Virus genome (UHGV): UHGV-0102870
DNA: 12,140 bases
Origin: a virus
Strand: one strand, 5' to 3'
A program made the position numbers and the translations under genes. This document shows, piece by piece, positions 2,778-10,958 of the stretch (positions are counted from its first letter, which is position 1; the number at the start of each line of letters is the position of its first letter). The notes under the pieces are model-generated. The model did no database searches. It was not told the origin of the DNA and saw only the letters and a program-made list of their open reading frames with translations.

Positions 2778-4057
2778 GTGCCACCCCCTGCGACAATCGC
2801 CTTAATTTCTGCTTCGGTGACCGTCTTCAGTACGCCCCGGTTTATCATTTCCCTGATAGCAACTTCTTCCGTCAGGATTGAACCCGTTACCAGCGTATTA
2901 AATCCGGTGGCGTACTGGCTAAACCGGTTAGCTTCGTCAGCCTCATTAATACTGTCGATTGTCGGGTATTCGTAGGTAAGGCTTTCCGTTATGGCGAGTT
3001 TATCCAGCGTGAACTGGTCGGCGAAATCCTGCATTGGACGAAGCCGGGACTCCTGAAGTCCGTTAATCGTCTCGTAATAGGATTTATTGTCTTCCTCTCC
3101 GCTGCTGAACCCGCTGGCAGACTCACCAAACAGAACCGTTATGGGCCTGTCCAGAGCACCGGCCAGTACAATCGCCATTTTGCTGATCACATCCGACAGT
3201 CCGGTAAATTGCGCGTTTTTCTGCTCATAGCGCCCTTGAGATGTTGTATCACCAGCGTCAATTAGCAGCAGCCCGGTTGAGGATTTAGTTTCCTTCATCA
3301 CCCTGGCGTATTCGCGCACCTGCCCTTCCTGACCCGCTGCGATCTGGTTATTCATGCCGGGGATAAACAGCACATCGACGTTTGCCTCCTGTATGGTGTC
3401 TCCGGTGCTGAGGATTGCTGTGTCGAAGGTTTTGATATGCTCATAGGGCGCCTGAAGGTCTGACGTGCCAAACTTTGCGCGATCCTTAATGCTGTGATTG
3501 CCCAGCTTTGTCCGGCAGCAGCGGGAATGATGAAACCTGAGTTGCTTCGTCCCGACATCAAGTTGATACGTCAGCGGCTCACCAAAACAGTCCGAACGTA
3601 TGTCGGTGATGACATTACTGTCCGGCGTGTACTCCCCTTTACGGAACACCAGGAATTTAACGATATCTTCGCTCTGCAAATTGAGCGGCAAGGCTATCTG
3701 GTCATCAGCACAATCCGTGATAGCCACGATTAGCGAGTCACCCAACAGAGAGGCCCATCCCAGCGCGCTGTGAAAGACTGCGTTTAATTTCAGTTCTTTT
3801 TCAGCGTCAGCGATGCGTTTGGTTATGGAGCTATCGACGTCGCCCGAAAATTTACGGGGCAACTTCAGCATGTCGTCGGCGGTTTTGTTGATGTACTTTT
3901 TCACCACCCACGATTTTTTATACATCGCGAGAAGTTCTTTATCCGGCACATCTGGCCTTGTGCTGCTGTACCGTACCGCTCCGATCTTCTCGCCGAGCGA
4001 GGTCATTAAGCTAACCAGGCCATCATTCAGACGACCAACGATATTTTTTCTCGTCAT
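2768..4057 (-). CDS. Portal protein, 429 aa
   Basis: ATG at 4057-4055 overlapping the TerL stop (TAATG); size and position directly after the large terminase; acidic, helix-rich sequence recalled as DUF1073-type portal. Confidence 0.7.
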   Translation of the reverse strand: MTRKNIVGRLNDGLVSLMTSLGEKIGAVRYSSTRPDVPDKELLAMYKKSWVVKKYINKTADDMLKLPRKFSGDVDSSITKRIADAEKELKLNAVFHSALGWASLLGDSLIVAITDCADDQIALPLNLQSEDIVKFLVFRKGEYTPDSNVITDIRSDCFGEPLTYQLDVGTKQLRFHHSRCCRTKLGNHSIKDRAKFGTSDLQAPYEHIKTFDTAILSTGDTIQEANVDVLFIPGMNNQIAAGQEGQVREYARVMKETKSSTGLLLIDAGDTTSQGRYEQKNAQFTGLSDVISKMAIVLAGALDRPITVLFGESASGFSSGEEDNKSYYETINGLQESRLRPMQDFADQFTLDKLAITESLTYEYPTIDSINEADEANRFSQYATGFNTLVTGSILTEEVAIREMINRGVLKTVTEAEIKAIVAGGGTWT

Positions 4058-6610: not shown

Positions 6611-6638
6611 TTAAAAAAGCCCCGCATTAGCGAGGCTT
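6611..6638 (-). terminator. Rho-independent terminator downstream of the small AT-rich ORF
   Basis: On the minus strand: 9-bp stem with one mismatch (AAGCCTCGC / GCGGGGCTT), 4-nt loop, then a run of six U followed by AA and two more U; lies 20 nt past the stop of the 6659-6955 ORF. Confidence 0.55.
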
Positions 6639-6658
6639 AAGACACTGATGAACATTAG

Positions 6659-6955
6659 TTACTTCAACTTAGCGAGATAGCTGATAACCATATCCAGGCT
6701 TACACGATCCTGTCCATCTGAGTACCAAGTATTAGGGGCTGGCTGATTGGCTTTGTACAGGGCATCAATGTTTAGGTTGATGTCAGTCACTTTAAAATCT
6801 CGATCATCAGGGTCAAGCTTTGATGAAATGATCTGACAGGAGCCTTCAGGTACTTTTTTGTGGTAACCAAGCTCATGGTTTTTACAGTAAATCTCGTACT
6901 TGATGGTAGACCCATCGTCCGTTTTCAAAATGAAAGAGTGAATTAAGTGCTTCAT
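6659..6955 (-). CDS. Hypothetical small protein, about 98 aa, AT-rich moron-like gene
   Basis: ATG at 6955-6953 (MKHLIHSF...) with a G-rich SD-like stretch 6 nt upstream; visibly lower G+C and different codon usage than the flanking phage genes; flanked by a candidate promoter and a terminator. No recognisable family. Confidence 0.5.
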   Translation of the reverse strand: MKHLIHSFILKTDDGSTIKYEIYCKNHELGYHKKVPEGSCQIISSKLDPDDRDFKVTDINLNIDALYKANQPAPNTWYSDGQDRVSLDMVISYLAKLK

Positions 6956-6992
6956 GAAAACCCCCACTATTAGTGTGAGTTATCACTTTAGC

Positions 6993-7001
6993 ATTATCAC
7001 A
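6993..7001 (-). promoter_or_regulatory. Candidate extended -10 promoter (TGTGATAAT) for the 6659-6955 ORF
   Basis: Minus-strand TGnGATAAT about 40 nt upstream of the ORF start; no good -35. Sits within two direct TTATCAC repeats (plus 6980-6986 and 6994-7000), next to an imperfect palindrome at 7001-7019. Confidence 0.3.
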
Positions 7002-7037
7002 GGCACTCAGTGAATGCCTGCTGTAATGCCTGGCTAT

Positions 7038-7382
7038 TTATCTCAGGAAGAGGTTGGCTGCATACTCGCCGTCAACGAAGACATCACATTCCTTTGCGTC
7101 ACGGGAAAACTTACAGCGGGCCATAACTTTTTTACCCTTATAGTCGCCGTTGTATACGTTCGTGTAGCTTTGGGCGAAAGCGGCCGAAAGACTTTTATCC
7201 TGGTTAAGGAATGAATCATCAACAACCAGGACATCATTAACCCACAACTTCAGTATTCCGTTTGGCATATTGGCACTAATGAGCATCTGCTCTCCATTGG
7301 GAGAGCGATAAGGTTGCTGTGCAGAATAGTTAGTGCATCCTGCAAGCAGGAGCGCAGAAAGCAAAACGGTAATACGCTTCAT
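7038..7382 (-). CDS. Putative lipoprotein (moron-like), about 114 aa
   Basis: N-terminus MKRITVLLSALLLAGC: basic n-region, hydrophobic core, lipobox L-A-G-C. AGGTGA SD 10 nt before the ATG at 7382; an in-frame ATG at 7388 is too close to the SD. Confidence 0.7.
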   Translation of the reverse strand: MKRITVLLSALLLAGCTNYSAQQPYRSPNGEQMLISANMPNGILKLWVNDVLVVDDSFLNQDKSLSAAFAQSYTNVYNGDYKGKKVMARCKFSRDAKECDVFVDGEYAANLFLR

Positions 7383-7498
7383 GGACATTCATTCACCTAA
7401 GTTAAATTATTGATTGATATGGTTTTAATATCACTAAAAATTAAACTATCAGCGCCTGGTTGTACACATGAAAATTGTTGTTATTTGAAGCTTAGCAA

Positions 7499-7969
7499 TC
7501 ATCTAATGCACTGCTCACGCACATACGCTTGCAGGCCTGTCAGTTGGCTGGTGATGGTTTCGATTCGCTCTCTGAGGGTGAAATAATCCCGTTCAGCGGC
7601 GTCAGTAAGTCGGGGGCCGGTTGCATCATCCAGGCCGGTGGCGCTGGCCGTTCCGTTCGCGGGACAGGTTGCGTTGAGCTGCAACCGACGTTTGCCAGCA
7701 GCAACATCACGCTCAAGCTGATCGATAGTGGCTTTGGCATCAGCCAGTTCTCCGGTGTATTTGGCATCCAGTGCAGCGACATCACGCTGGCGGGTCTGCA
7801 TGTCTTTAATGGTGGCGGTCGCCAGGAGGAGTTTCTCAGTGGCCTTATCGCGCTGGTCTCTGTAAGTGATGGCGTTGTCGCGGTAGTGGTTCACGAAGAA
7901 AGCCAGTGCGCCGATTAACGCCAGCACCAGCAACTGCAGCCAGTAACGCTTAACCAGTGCGCTAATCAT
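7499..7969 (-). CDS. Rz: i-spanin Rz, 156 aa
   Basis: N-terminal TM segment then coiled coil; clear similarity to lambda Rz as I recall it ([62 protein letters not shown]); start overlaps the endolysin stop. Confidence 0.9.
7540..7740 (-). CDS. Rz1: o-spanin Rz1 lipoprotein, embedded in the +1 frame of Rz, about 66 aa
   Basis: ORF lies entirely inside Rz in another frame; [20 protein letters not shown] signal with lipobox Cys; proline-rich mature part [24 protein letters not shown] closely matches lambda Rz1 ([25 protein letters not shown]) from memory. Start could instead be the ATG at 7707. Confidence 0.8.
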
Positions 7970-8406
7970 GACAGGAACAGAGCTCGCTCTGCCTCCCGCC
8001 GACGTGTCAGCCCATTCAGCACCTTCCCACCAGCTTTATTCCAGCGCAGGAACTCATCGGCTGCACCAGCGTAATCTCCGGCGTTGAGTTTTCGCAGGAG
8101 AGTCGATGTCGACAATGACCGCGCACCGAGGTTATACGTGAACGACACCAGGGCATCGAATTGCCCCTGAGTCAGGCCAACTTTAACCAGTCGTGACACG
8201 TCACTTTCGTAACTGACCATTCCTGTCTTCAGCAGGCGTTCTGCCGTTTCCTGCTTAATTGTCATCCCGGCACGGATTGGTTTCCCGTCGACGGGCTGAG
8301 TCCAGCCATAACCGATCGTCCAAACGCCGACGCTGTCCTGATAGGCAGTGAGCTTGCAACCTTCGAACTCTTTGATCAGGGCAATGCCTTTATCACTGGT
8401 TTGCAT
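7966..8406 (-). CDS. Endolysin, phage lysozyme (T4 lysozyme / GH24 type, P22 gp19-like), 146 aa
   Basis: N-terminal catalytic region [28 protein letters not shown] and C-terminal [12 protein letters not shown] match the P22 gp19 lysozyme family as I recall it; no N-terminal SAR/TM segment; overlaps the holin stop. Confidence 0.92.
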
Positions 8407-8710
8407 TCTTCATCCCCGTCAGTCGTTCCCAGAAGTACGTCAGTGCCACGGAGCCCATCGCCCCGCTGATACCAGACGTAACCAGAATCATGTAAAGGCT
8501 CAGCCCACTTTCAACGCTGATCAGTCCACCAATGAGACCGGTAAAGCCGGACACTGCAATTTGTGCCAGCGCGTTGATCCAGCTCCAGGTGGCTTTGTTC
8601 TGCTTAACGTCAATAAGGTATCGGACCAAGCCGCCCCAGCATGACAGAGCAAGGACAATCAGCCATGACACTCCGGCAATGCTTTCTTTATCTTGCATAC
8701 GTTTAGCCAT
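8393..8710 (-). CDS. Holin (three predicted TM segments, class I-like), about 105 aa
   Basis: ATG at 8710-8708 with a strong SD (GGAGGT) just upstream; three hydrophobic segments and a short charged C-terminus; directly upstream of the endolysin. The annotated ORF extension to 8824 uses GTG inside the terminator hairpin and is rejected. Confidence 0.75.
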   Translation of the reverse strand: MAKRMQDKESIAGVSWLIVLALSCWGGLVRYLIDVKQNKATWSWINALAQIAVSGFTGLIGGLISVESGLSLYMILVTSGISGAMGSVALTYFWERLTGMKNANQ

Positions 8711-8768
8711 ATCACCTCCGAAAGAACGGGGTGCTGTTTGTAGTAAGGGATCAGGCCCTCGGGACGAT

Positions 8769-9161
8769 TTAACAAGAAGGCATGTCGATGATGATTCCCG
8801 TGAGCCTGAAAACAAAAAAGCCACCCTTAGGTGGCTTGTGAGTGTACGAAGTCCGGATTCCTTTCTTCGCTTTTAATAGAGCGTTATCTTCTTTCAGGCT
8901 ATCTACTTGGTCTCGCAACCTTTCAAGTTCTTTCTCGGCTCTGTCACGGTCACGCTGAAGACCTTTTATCACTTCGCCTTGGGACGCCTGTACTTCTTTG
9001 AGAATCTGGACGTTAGCTTCGGACTCATCGACAGTGTCGATAATCCTAACAGCAAAAAACGATACGATAGCCATAAGCAGACCAACCATCGTAGTAAGAA
9101 TCCAGACCTTCACACCGGAAGCAGAATTTTCAGAGGCTTCTATAAGAAATTCCTTATGCAT
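8769..9161 (-). CDS. Hypothetical membrane-anchored coiled-coil protein, about 130 aa; possibly a gene remnant
   Basis: ATG at 9161-9159 (MHKEFLIEAS...), weak SD; one N-terminal TM segment (WILTTMVGLLMAIVSFFAV) then heptad-like charged region (RDRDRAEKELERLRDQVDSLKEDNALLKAKKG). The last ~25 codons are encoded by the terminator hairpin and U-tract (KPPKGGFFVF), so the 3' end is doubtful. Confidence 0.4.
   Translation of the reverse strand: MHKEFLIEASENSASGVKVWILTTMVGLLMAIVSFFAVRIIDTVDESEANVQILKEVQASQGEVIKGLQRDRDRAEKELERLRDQVDSLKEDNALLKAKKGIRTSYTHKPPKGGFFVFRLTGIIIDMPSC
8809..8837 (-). terminator. Strong rho-independent terminator (tR'-like) about 100 nt upstream of the holin
   Basis: Minus-strand RNA: perfect 8-bp stem AAGCCACC / GGUGGCUU with 4-nt loop, followed by UUUUUUGUUUU. 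Confidence 0.7.
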
Positions 9162-9697
9162 AGTAAAAATACCCAACGCGCGGCCGCGACGTTAGAACCG
9201 AGGGTATTTTAACTACATAAGGTTATGAAGATCTTCGAAAAAAATGAGATGGTAATCTGTTTGGTTATTTAATGAGCGAAAACAGCCAAAATCCCCATGC
9301 AGGGATGATAAAAAACGTCATTGTGTAAACGACTGCGGGCTGTAATTTATTCAAATTAAATTTCCTTAGTAGGGCTCTATGTGTCCTACAACATCCAACC
9401 TACCGAAAGACATTGATTGATACAAGAGGAAAAACACTACTTTTTATTCAAATTAGGATCGGTTTTGTATCCGATGGCGCGGCATTATACGGAGATAACC
9501 CAAGTTATCAACATGAATTGCCCTCATTTGCACGCAAAATGTGCTGTTTCTTCAAAAGAATGAACAGTTTTGATGGTGAACAGTTATCAACGCTTACGTT
9601 TAAAAAACAAACCATTAACACGCACAATGATTCACAGTTCAAAAAGTTCACATTTATGACCGCGAGATGGTACACAAGTTCAAAGAATTCACTTACT

Positions 9698-9731
9698 AAA
9701 ACAAAAAGCCCAAGGCGTTAACCTCAGGCTT
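9698..9731 (-). terminator. Candidate intrinsic terminator shortly downstream of the putative late promoter
   Basis: Minus-strand RNA: GCCUGAGG / CCUUGGGC stem (8 bp including two G-U pairs), 6-nt loop, followed by UUUUUGUUUU; about 50-80 nt downstream of the predicted start site. Confidence 0.45.
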
Positions 9732-9787
9732 GAAAACTCATTTACTGCCAGTGCATACAACAATGGCACAATATCAGATTTACACGA

Positions 9788-9816
9788 AATATATGCTATT
9801 TAGTTCATTTCTGCAA
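9788..9816 (-). promoter_or_regulatory. Candidate sigma70 late promoter (pR'-like) immediately downstream of the Q-like gene
   Basis: Minus strand: TTGCAG (-35), 17-nt spacer, TATATT (-10); predicted start near 9781. The -35 lies 9 nt past the Q stop codon, mirroring the lambda Q/pR' arrangement. Confidence 0.4.
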
Positions 9817-10489
9817 TACCTTGCTGATAATTTGCTGCCTTTTGTTGTGAACGTGATCGCGAAACATGATGTAGTGACTGTGAGTCCAGCCTCTTATACA
9901 AACTGACCATTGCATCGTAATGTTCCACGTAATTCTGAGACCAGTTTGTTTTATTAACGCCCACCAGCGCAGCCAGATCGCCATACTGATACACATCCCT
10001 CCCAGCTAACTCGTTTTTCACATCCTGCGCCGCCAGCCATATCAACTGACGCAACCGCTCGATAGTCTTTTTCGCCACCCTCTTCCCAGCCAGTTGCTGG
10101 CTGAACTGTTGCCAACCCCACTGAGTGATTTCAACCTGATAGCACCAGCGCACATTCTCGCTGTAGGTCCAGAGCAACCATGCTCTCTGATGGTCTTCCA
10201 GAGACAGGACAGCGCGGCGCCATGATGCGGTGCCGAACTCTACCGGACTCACCAGCGCGATTGACGAGCCCTTGGCGCGTGACTGACTGCCGCTCATCGG
10301 CGGGCCGTCTGGGTTAACCATGCGCTTTTTCTGCGCGTCATAGACTTTCTTCCGCCCCCGGCTGCGCGCCGTCGCGGTGAATTGAGCGTTCTCGGCGAAA
10401 GCGACCAGCTGCCCTTTCGTCGCCCCGCTGAGGTCTGCGGTCGCCACAATGAGCTGCTGACGTACGTATTCCAGTTGCTGACTGTTCAT
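9800..10489 (-). CDS. Putative late-gene antitermination protein (Q-like), 229 aa
   Basis: ATG at 10489-10487 with AGGAAG SD; position is diagnostic (after nin/RusA genes, immediately before promoter, terminator and lysis cassette). Not the lambda Q zinc-finger type; assignment is positional plus vague family recollection. Confidence 0.5.
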   Translation of the reverse strand: MNSQQLEYVRQQLIVATADLSGATKGQLVAFAENAQFTATARSRGRKKVYDAQKKRMVNPDGPPMSGSQSRAKGSSIALVSPVEFGTASWRRAVLSLEDHQRAWLLWTYSENVRWCYQVEITQWGWQQFSQQLAGKRVAKKTIERLRQLIWLAAQDVKNELAGRDVYQYGDLAALVGVNKTNWSQNYVEHYDAMVSLYKRLDSQSLHHVSRSRSQQKAANYQQGIAEMN

Positions 10490-10598
10490 GCGGCTTCCTT
10501 CTGTGGCTGGTTGGTTTTGGTCTGGCTGTGCTTTGCTATTGGCGGCAGGTTGGCGCGCTTAACGCTTTCGGCCTGATATCGGGTTATCTCGTCTCTGG

Positions 10599-10958
10599 TC
10601 ACGGTGCGCACTCCCCGATAATGATCTGCCCCTTCTCTCCCCAGACCTTTGTGATGCGGCAATCCCAGATGTGAGCATCATCCTCATAAAGCGCATCCAT
10701 CAGGGCTTTCAGCATGTTGTCGCAGTCTGGCTTGGCCTGGTGGGGCTTCCCGGCGAACTCCGCTCGTTTCTTCTTACTCCAGCTTGGTGGCATTGGTAGG
10801 ACGAATGTCACATGTGATCCGGATTCAGGCATGGTCAACTTGCGCAGGCGGACCTCATCGCAAAAAGCGCGGTAACGCATTACAGGTGGACGCTGCTTCC
10901 ACTTATCCGCGCGGGTCATGCGAGGCTTGCCGATTGGTGTGATGTCGTAGATTTTCAT
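10599..10958 (-). CDS. RusA-like Holliday junction resolvase, 119 aa
   Basis: Motif KPDCDNMLKALMDALYEDDAHIWD resembles the RusA catalytic signature (D-x-D-N ... DAL ... DDA) from memory; typical nin-region position; start overlaps the upstream stop (ATGA). Confidence 0.6.
   Translation of the reverse strand: MKIYDITPIGKPRMTRADKWKQRPPVMRYRAFCDEVRLRKLTMPESGSHVTFVLPMPPSWSKKKRAEFAGKPHQAKPDCDNMLKALMDALYEDDAHIWDCRITKVWGEKGQIIIGECAP

Follow-up and report, generated by a model that had tools for sequence, protein, structure and literature searches.

What occupies the long AT-rich stretch between the antiterminator gene Q and the holin gene in the virus genome UHGV-0102870? This genome, a complete metagenome contig of 12,140 bp that we analyzed at its full length (hereafter the window), has all of its genes on the minus strand, as are the window features described below unless noted, and represents the late region of a lambdoid prophage; at least 24 further contigs carry the same phage. 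An initial annotation of positions 8769–9816, made from the letters alone, had proposed that this segment is AT-rich and compositionally distinct and may be an accessory unit at the place where lambdoid phages carry Q-controlled cargo. Its composition is indeed distinct: the GC content is 0.401, compared with 0.520 window-wide, and practically no other 1048-bp stretch of the contig is lower in GC (the minimum, 0.396, is at 8911). From the features read in the sequence, we are highly confident that two units adjoin here, namely a late transcription unit of the Q82 type and, downstream of it, a cassette with a predicted promoter (P1), a 29-codon gene (ORF1) and a second open reading frame (ORF2) that contains the cassette's own terminator. 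The explanation that accounts best for the locus, and whose chances we put somewhat above even, is that the cassette is mobile and that ORF2 is a non-stop gene controlled by the terminator, by transfer-messenger RNA (tmRNA) and by Q. An accessory unit in the Q cargo slot was therefore correctly recognized by the annotation, but the layout it gave was not, and P1, the 29-aa gene and the stop-less ORF2 had been missed.

Loci for comparison were drawn from 31 ORF2 protein clusters and 3 species-representative genomes, 41 viral contigs and 14 metagenome loci, which gave 42 distinct sequences; 35 distinct loci were used for the promoter and the start codon, 42 for the stop position, 44 for the block boundaries and 21 for the leader alignment. 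In the window, the cassette terminator (8837–8809) consists of the stem AAGCCACC/GGTGGCTT, the loop TAAG and the tract TTTTGTTTT (scan match 8837–8818, 8 pairs) and folds at −13.8 kcal/mol (z = −4.1). It was present in all loci with varying stems (GCCACC/GGTGGC, GCTGCC/GGCAGC and GGTCGCC/GGCGGCC), 96.4% of the alignment cells being paired and three pairs showing double changes. The same nucleotides, 8837–8809, translate in the ORF2 frame as K-P-P-K-G-G-F-F-V-F, where the hairpin corresponds to KPPKGG and the T-tract to FF. The first in-frame stop codon of ORF2 lies 12–171 nt (median, 59) past the first T of the tract, and 48 nt past it in the window, and is thus beyond the expected release point in every one of the 42 distinct loci. 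The hairpin is in frame in every locus, and the T-tract is read in different codon phases. Conservation of the ORF2 protein covers the transmembrane helix, the coiled coil and ...GIPLTLNSEPPSGGFF (GIRTSYTHKPPKGGFF in the window) and ends exactly at the T-tract, beyond which the tails are unrelated and 2–55 codons long. The IPLTLN codons directly 5′ of the hairpin vary synonymously (codon-position entropy, 0.44/0.59/1.14), which argues that ribosomes read up to the hairpin. A divergent outgroup locus (L067) carries this pair of genes at the equivalent place, but its ORF2 ends in KGKK-TAA and the terminator follows 13 nt later; the in-frame terminator is thus a derived state that has been retained throughout the main clade. 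Both minus-strand terminators of the annotation, at 8837–8809 and at 9731–9698, were recovered by scanning and folding, and the region 8300–10600 held five terminator-like sites in the consensus scan, compared with 2.2 ± 1.5 in shuffled sequences. However, the terminator at 8837–8809, previously assigned to the promoter next to Q, is the cassette's own and lies inside the cassette's second reading frame.

ORF2 (8769–9161; TAA stop at 8771–8769) had been noticed as a membrane coiled-coil ORF, and it is real: the frame 9161/9176–8769 belongs to a conserved family of 31 protein clusters, with a ratio of nonsynonymous to synonymous substitution rates (dN/dS) of 0.18 and a codon-position entropy of 0.58/0.42/1.07. 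The predicted product is a bitopic membrane/coiled-coil protein with its transmembrane segment encoded at about 9107–9048. An AlphaFold2 (AF2) model, with a predicted local distance difference test score of 62, shows a single helix over residues 7–99 and a disordered tail; the protein, of about 110 aa, is thus made of the transmembrane segment and one long helix. Coding periodicity starts at a conserved ATA codon, with none upstream. In all 35 distinct loci a second TAAGG(A/T) motif, the first being that of ORF1, is followed after 7–8 nt by ATA (32 loci) or ATC (3 loci); in the window, the Shine–Dalgarno sequence AAGGA is at 9155–9151 and the ATA at 9143–9141. Eleven of these 35 loci have no in-frame ATG, GTG or TTG between the preceding stop codon and the ATA/ATC, and in L009–L011 a TAA lies one codon upstream of it. 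The conserved start of ORF2 is apparently the weak non-AUG codon AUA at 9143. Since some loci have no canonical start, gene callers pick different ones, and RefSeq uses an internal ATG (Escherichia coli SUISSEKPC3NDM5).

The predicted cassette promoter, P1 (9511–9476), has the −35 box TTGATA (9511–9506), a 16-bp spacer, the −10 box TATAAT (9489–9484) and a GC-rich discriminator, GCCGCGCC (9483–9476), with a predicted start at 9477–9475. It matches 11 of 12 consensus positions and was the best sigma-70 match of the region in the consensus scan (9511–9484). Together with the 29-aa ORF1 (9354–9265), it lies in the roughly 450 bp that the initial annotation had judged to be without a convincing ORF. 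P1 is the only promoter-like site that is conserved in position in all 35 distinct loci, where the hexamers TTGAnn/TAnnnT are fixed and the spacer sequence is variable; among the 42 loci it is present in 41, the remaining one being truncated. That the unit is accessory and has its own conserved promoter agrees with the earlier proposal. Promoters of the ribosomal RNA (rRNA) type, which are sensitive to guanosine tetraphosphate (ppGpp) and DksA, are marked by hexamers close to consensus, a spacer of 16 bp and a discriminator rich in GC. By this analogy, P1 is probably strong in growing cells and ppGpp/DksA-sensitive.

Taken together, these features suggest how the cassette may work. P1 would give rise to a messenger RNA (mRNA) of about 670 nt carrying ORF1 with a normal start and stop, a stem-loop and then ORF2. 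In the lysogen, P1 transcripts would end at 8837–8809, keeping cassette transcription out of the holin gene, and the weak AUA start would load ORF2 only sparsely with ribosomes, leaving the terminator unsuppressed. Because P1 is conserved and no terminator lies between ORF1 and ORF2, a terminated, stop-less ORF2 mRNA is expected whenever P1 fires. Ribosomes on this RNA would reach its 3′ end without meeting a stop codon and would be dealt with by tmRNA or ArfA, with very low amounts of ORF2 protein as the outcome. The stem-loop may in the meantime shield the ORF1 mRNA from decay after non-stop translation. Upon induction, Q-modified polymerase coming from the late promoter pR′ would pass its terminator tR′ and the cassette terminator; such read-through alone would provide the ORF2 mRNA with its stop codon (8771–8769), and complete, untagged protein would be made alongside the lysis proteins. 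The strict placement of the cassette behind a Q gene of any family fits the need for processive antitermination. For the trans-translation and Q-supplied-stop logic, which is drawn by analogy, we consider the chances to be even.

The analogy is with genes in which an intrinsic terminator within the ORF gives a non-stop mRNA and tmRNA tagging, as reported for ArfA (PMC3989581) and BrfA (PMC6881298). In the model genes of Keiler et al., the product of an in-ORF terminator is likewise SsrA-tagged and degraded. Terminators located late in an ORF are repressed by ribosomes, and the terminated RNAs trigger trans-translation (PMC4824070). ArfA of E. coli and BrfA of Bacillus subtilis have a terminator or an RNase III hairpin in the ORF and a non-stop mRNA, and are repressed by trans-translation. 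ORF2 resembles them in its conserved terminator hairpin 5′ of the stop codon and in that the residues past the hairpin are dispensable or variable; since the hairpin is upstream of the stop codon, the natural transcript should lack a stop, as in ArfA and BrfA. Unlike them, ORF2 encodes a prophage membrane coiled-coil protein with no sequence or functional relation to either (Pfam and NCBIfam gave coiled-coil noise), so that the resemblance would be one of mechanism, and a phage antiterminator could restore its stop codon, a layer that is absent from ArfA and BrfA.

Several points weigh against this explanation. The real starts could be in-frame ATG or GTG codons that occur a few codons upstream of the ATA in the window and in roughly half of the loci; the one in the window, ATG 9161, is in frame and without a Shine–Dalgarno sequence. 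L067, with its normal stop codon, implies that stop-lessness is not needed for the basic function of the protein. Searches of ORF1 and ORF2 against Pfam, NCBIfam, PHROG, PADLOC and PDB profiles returned only coiled-coil noise, and thus no homology indicates a function. The outer helix of the intercistronic stem-loop is only 71% paired. The likeness of P1 to rRNA promoters is drawn from sequence features known from the literature, and promoter activity, the 3′ ends and termination point, tmRNA tagging and Q read-through are likewise deduced by analogy. Finally, late-ORF terminators can be partly read through when translated (PMC4824070).

An unlikely but serious alternative is that the missing stop codon is incidental. 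The cassette would then be an ordinary late gene or moron (an independently expressed insertion with its own promoter and terminator, such as lambda bor/lom or the P22 'ant moron'; PMC2629481), in which ORF2 is made mainly from Q-antiterminated or leaky transcripts and a variable tail is tolerated; P1 would mainly serve ORF1, and trans-translation would have no regulatory part. Unrelated tails of 2–55 codons are what neutrality predicts, the C-terminal 30 residues are disordered in the AF2 model, L067 has a normal stop codon, and a position always 3′ of a Q gene guarantees a Q-dependent full-length mRNA. However, P1 reads into ORF2 in every locus, with no terminator between ORF1 and ORF2, and purifying selection acts on the codons right up to the hairpin. 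Moreover, a stop codon 5′ of the hairpin is missing from all 42 distinct loci, although one point mutation would suffice to create it.

Considerably less probable is a translation-sensing attenuator, in which a closely following ribosome blocks the hairpin, P1 leaks into the holin and lysis genes without Q, and the AUA codon sets the leak. In its favour, late-ORF terminators are repressed by the ribosome, one construct retaining about 40% efficiency (PMC4824070); in ORF2 the hairpin comes after about 306 nt, the weak non-AUG start is conserved and the cassette is always directly 5′ of the lysis genes. Against this, Q-independent holin expression from a strong constitutive promoter should harm lysogens, and the extra terminators (L017/L019, L042) or cargo (L037, L066) in front of the holin gene mean that read-through would often stop short. 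Nor is there a conserved stalling motif at the hairpin, PPS/PPK being replaced by AASGQ or VADGG in other variants.

If ORF2 is indeed a non-stop gene, a two-input switch can be imagined in which its product accumulates only when Q, of any family, supplies the stop codon or when the cell has run out of capacity for trans-translation, as might happen under translation stress or upon superinfection by a phage. This extension is tentative, and we think it rather doubtful. If true, it would be, as far as we know, the first report of a phage-borne 'stop-less' gene and the first of antitermination controlling the fate of a protein and not just the presence of its mRNA, and it would link lambdoid prophages to tmRNA in a concrete way. 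Some lambdoid phages have long been observed to depend on tmRNA, and the cassette offers a testable handle on that dependence. In the literature searched, a conserved stop-less layout is described only for the ribosome-rescue factors ArfA and BrfA. Its occurrence in a mobile cassette of prophages suggests that regulation through non-stop mRNA is of wider use; no description was found of any phage gene that combines a conserved non-AUG start with an end at a terminator instead of a stop codon. The locus is also an annotation problem, as the 29-aa gene is unannotated and ORF2 is given arbitrary starts and C-terminal tails. Should the non-stop reading be wrong, an ordinary, previously undescribed moron remains.

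The first gene of the cassette, ORF1 (9354–9265), encodes the 29-aa hydrophobic peptide MNKLQPAVVYTMTFFIIPAWGFWLFSLIK from a TTG codon located 8 nt after AAGGA and has its own TAA stop. It is exactly 29 codons long in every locus, in 16 sequence variants, and starts with ATG in divergent loci. Its codon-position entropy is 0.48/0.15/0.71 and its dN/dS is 0.21, compared with about 1.2 for the flanking non-coding leader and spacer read in an arbitrary frame. RefSeq leaves it unannotated. The product is a predicted membrane peptide without a lipobox. An envelope role is plausible for both small membrane proteins of the cassette, either superinfection exclusion in the lysogen or late modulation of lysis. 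The names 'TraF' and 'FtsB' that databases give to ORF2 clusters derive from faint matches. We also rejected ORF2 as an Rz paralogue or spanin: BLASTP against the Rz of the window gave E = 0.36, the PHROG coiled-coil matches were weak (E ~3e-3), and the window already has Rz (7969–7499) and a candidate embedded Rz1 ORF (7785–7540; lipobox read from the sequence).

ORF1 and ORF2 are separated by the intercistronic stem-loop (9215–9161), with an inner hairpin at 9193–9175, AACG-u-CGC[GGCC]GCG-CGTT, and outer arms at 9215–9202 and 9174–9161. The inner helix is 93% paired and shows compensatory changes in five of its seven pairs (CGC/GCG versus UCU/AGA), reading AACG-a-UCU[GCGC]AGA-CGTT in other lineages. 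An internal promoter at TAAAAT (9212–9207) was rejected, as the motif has neither a −35 box nor an extended −10 and is better read as the 5′ arm of the outer stem. In the zntR–arfA operon, a non-stop downstream ORF lowers expression of the upstream ORF via coupled exonucleolytic decay, and an inserted intercistronic stem-loop abolishes the effect (PMC10107115). As in this operon, one mRNA of the cassette would carry a normal reading frame (ORF1) ahead of a non-stop one (ORF2), but the conserved, covarying stem-loop between the ORFs sets the cassette apart. Since the inserted stem-loop abolished coupling in zntR–arfA, ORF1 may be insulated rather than co-repressed.

Upstream of ORF1 runs a conserved 5′ leader (9475–9355), with a 5′ hairpin (9475–9458) and a small hairpin just before the Shine–Dalgarno motif TAAGGA (9368–9363), for which the 21-locus alignment gave one covarying pair. 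The leader contains the blocks AATTTGA, an A-rich AAAAAGTAG run, CTCTTGT and GGTAGGTTGGA, which are conserved without covariation, and a perfect 13-nt repeat, TAATTTGAATAAA, occurs in the leader (9455–9443) and again across the ORF1 start codon (9358–9346). The blocks and the repeat hint at a trans-acting RNA or protein that regulates ORF1 translation. An ORF on the plus strand (9413–9721) was ruled out, because the leader shows no codon periodicity in the 21 loci. A long regulatory leader ahead of a small hydrophobic peptide also recalls a type I toxin–antitoxin system, in which ORF1 would be the toxin and an antisense or nearby small RNA the antitoxin, and TisB and ZorO are similar in size to ORF1. 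ORF1 is indeed a hydrophobic peptide of 29 aa that ends in Lys, and its 5′ untranslated region of about 120 nt has conserved blocks and a hairpin adjacent to the Shine–Dalgarno sequence. We nevertheless regard this as very improbable, as no promoter-like site on the opposite strand is conserved in position anywhere in the cassette, there is no Rfam match, the Shine–Dalgarno sequence of ORF1 is good and apparently exposed, and ORF1 is always linked to ORF2.

The other of the two units, which precedes the cassette, begins at the Q gene (10489–9800), whose 229-aa product matches Pfam PF06323 over its full length (E = 8.6e-83) and PHROG 304 ('anti-termination protein Q-like'). PF06323 is the Q82 family, and a Q cassette is defined by the Q gene, the promoter PR′, a sigma-dependent pause element and a terminator (PMC9388147). 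The predicted late promoter pR′ (9816–9788) overlaps the 3′ end of Q and has the −35 box TTGCAG (9816–9811), a 17-bp spacer and the −10 box TATATT (9793–9788), with a start near 9781. It had already been proposed as a candidate; it falls below the threshold of the generic consensus scan because its −35 box matches only three of six positions, but 16 loci of the same Q family, two of them without the insert, keep its hexamers and position. In the resulting alignment of 17 sequences, the −35 box TTGCA(A/G), the 17-bp spacing and the −10 box (T/C)A(T/C)ATT are kept. A candidate sigma-dependent pause element, TGATATTGT (9776–9768), spans about +6 to +14 and consists of TATTGT, which resembles a −10 hexamer, preceded by TG; the motif TGATAT(T/C)GT is nearly invariant among the aligned relatives and agrees in sequence with such an element. 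We infer its pausing role from how the Q cassette is defined (PMC9388147).

The terminator at 9731–9698 (scan match 9731–9706, 11 pairs followed by TTTGTTTT) occurs at a fixed distance in the relatives, and its stems differ by lineage yet remain complementary. The initial annotation had listed it as a second candidate terminator and had placed about 1 kb between pR′ and its terminator. It is in fact the real tR′, only about 85 nt from the predicted start and kept with compensatory stems in relatives without the insert, and the cassette lies downstream of it. The 85-nt pR′–tR′ RNA folds at −26 kcal/mol (z = −2.9). As pR′, the pause motif and tR′ are conserved, with compensatory stems, 9816–9698 is a canonical pR′–pause–tR′ unit of the Q82 family, and relatives without the insert retain it. 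Without Q, pR′ should produce only an RNA of about 85 nt. This part of the window, following a Q82-family gene, thus has every sequence element of a lambdoid Q-dependent late cassette in canonical order, including a predicted short terminated RNA in the absence of Q, as in the case of lambda 6S RNA. It differs in length, the pR′–tR′ unit of lambda being about 194 nt, and in having another terminator downstream, which belongs to the inserted cassette here and is resident in relatives.

That the DNA downstream of tR′ is an insertion was established by alignment to related prophages, a check that the annotation had suggested. The distance from Q to the holin gene is 1089 bp in the window but 281 bp in E. 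coli 1218KP and 453 bp in HL15, both complete E. coli genomes with the same Q family. In a four-way alignment, the end of Q, pR′ and the first terminator are common to all four sequences, and the two 'empty' relatives (L002 and L003) lack all of the DNA between about 9697 and the T-tract near 8818. This DNA is present in L001 ahead of a different lysis cassette; in E. coli M172-1, the insert occurs at 97–99.9% identity ahead of a different, unrelated lysis cassette. HL15 has a different terminator where the window has 8837–8809, with the same downstream flank (CAGGCTC..GGGAA..CATC), and a 15-nt direct repeat, 889 nt apart, coincides with the T-tract and 3′ arm of both window terminators. These two observations place the joints of the insert in the terminator tails. 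An insertion sequence or transposon was rejected: there is no transposase and there are no terminal inverted repeats, the sole flanking repeat being the T-tract and 3′ arm shared by the terminators.

The block shared by nearly all of the 44 loci in BLAST comparisons extends from about 9545/9520, just 5′ of the −35 box of P1, to the T-tract at about 8810, and judged by these features the cassette, approximately 9520–8809, is a self-contained promoter-to-terminator moron that was previously undescribed. The moron definition reportedly due to Juhala and Hendrix served as the criterion. Like other morons, the cassette is present in some related phages and absent from others, runs from promoter to terminator, has a lower GC content and is oriented with the operon. 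Unlike them, it keeps strictly to a single slot, the one between Q/tR′ and the lysis genes, whichever of the three unrelated Q families is present; its terminator lies inside the last frame and not after the stop codon, and its last gene has a conserved non-canonical start.

Between tR′ and P1, the window has an AT-rich spacer of 177 bp (9697–9521; GC 0.36) that is optional: it occurs only in L001, L007, L008, L017 and L019/20, and in L041–L046 the cassette begins about 30 nt after tR′. The spacer carries 16-nt direct repeats, GTGAA(C/T)T(T/C)TTTGAACT, at 9692–9677 and 9651–9636, a second copy of TTGATAACT (9591–9582) and the inverted repeat GCACATTTTGCGTGC (9544–9530), and on this basis could be a regulator-binding region for P1. 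At the corresponding place in L067 (2640–2700), four tandem copies of GGTTCTAGAT and two of AAACGATACTA lie between tR′ and the cassette promoter; these copies may form an iterated operator.

The cassette was found in 42 distinct loci and spans at least nine enterobacterial genera: the source names of the ORF2 protein clusters, where given, are Citrobacter, Raoultella, Klebsiella, Enterobacter, Edwardsiella, Cronobacter, Pantoea and Serratia, and E. coli is included, with the cassette in 25 of 5,426 complete genomes. The ORF2 family corresponds to 17 clusters at E < 1e-10 among 1.84 billion representatives, and megablast, blastn and tblastn found the cassette in none of 50,697 deposited phage genomes. 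It always lies 3′ of the Q gene, in the slot between Q/tR′ and the lysis genes. The gene on its 5′ side is a Q of the PF06323 (Q82), PF03589 (lambda) or PF06530 (21) family, with a DUF1133-type gene in L019 and a gene without a Pfam match in L037 as exceptions, and the first lysis gene on its 3′ side belongs to PF16083, PF04971, PF05106 or PF16931. That the cassette is decaying junk or a chance AT-rich spacer whose motifs have no function is scarcely credible: neither protein matches a known family and the deposited phage genomes lack it, but the selection and covariation statistics exclude such an origin, with dN/dS values of 0.18–0.21 in the ORFs versus about 1.2 in the controls and compensatory changes in two RNA helices, and all 35 loci compared have conserved promoter hexamers, and the cassette is kept across all the genera named above.

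The slot itself is known from Stx-type phages, in which stx and transfer RNAs (tRNAs) lie between Q and S, and both the cassette's own promoter and Q read-through could express the cassette there. Unlike Stx-type cargo, the cassette lacks toxin and tRNA genes as well as any known domain for virulence or defence (Pfam, NCBIfam and PADLOC); ARAGORN found no tRNA in the window, and Rfam searches at E ≤ 1 gave chance matches only. Other loci do carry cargo here, in agreement with the Q-proximal cargo slot that had been suggested: tRNA-Asn and tRNA-Arg lie between the cassette and the holin gene in E. coli SUISSEKPC3NDM5 (L066, 3919–4075), and an N6/N4 DNA methylase gene does so in L037 (3974–5077) and L067 (3588–4628). 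In L017 and L019, a second intrinsic terminator follows the cassette terminator directly in tandem (about 3843–3885), and the second terminator of L042 (about 3900–3980) is the resident one, also present in cassette-free relatives. In this phage group, Q will therefore often have two or three terminators to override in the leader of the late operon.

The remainder of the window has the gene order expected from its late-region assignment. In order, the window comprises a Metallophos-family (PF00149) gene, a gene whose YbcO-like match is below threshold, RusA, Q (10489–9800) and, past the cassette, the holin gene (8710–8393), followed by lysozyme, Rz, two orphan ORFs, a metallopeptidase gene, terminase, portal and head genes. 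The lysis-operon leader between the cassette and the holin gene (8808–8711) is conserved and is common to phages and prophages without the cassette. The holin, the first gene of the lysis cassette, is of the LydA type (Pfam PF16083, E = 2e-21). Its N-terminus, MAKRM, has Met codons at 8710 and 8698 that flank Lys-Arg and resembles a dual start of the lambda S107/S105 type (holin/antiholin); its Shine–Dalgarno sequence GGAGGTG (8722–8716) is able to pair with CACCCCG (8733–8727), in a fold no better than those of shuffled sequences (z = −0.5). A second AT-rich block (GC 0.42) extends over 6620–7500, between Rz/Rz1 and the metallopeptidase gene, and holds the two orphan ORFs, 7388–7038 (signal peptide, lipobox LLLAGC) and 6967–6659, with no significant match in Pfam, PHROG or PADLOC; it is probably another moron slot, comparable in position to that of bor in lambda. 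On the other side of Q, a 38-aa ORF (10602–10486) lies between RusA and Q and overlaps both gene ends; it is called in one public annotation (L050) of this very phage, and small YlcG-like or hypothetical genes are annotated at the RusA–Q junction of related prophages.

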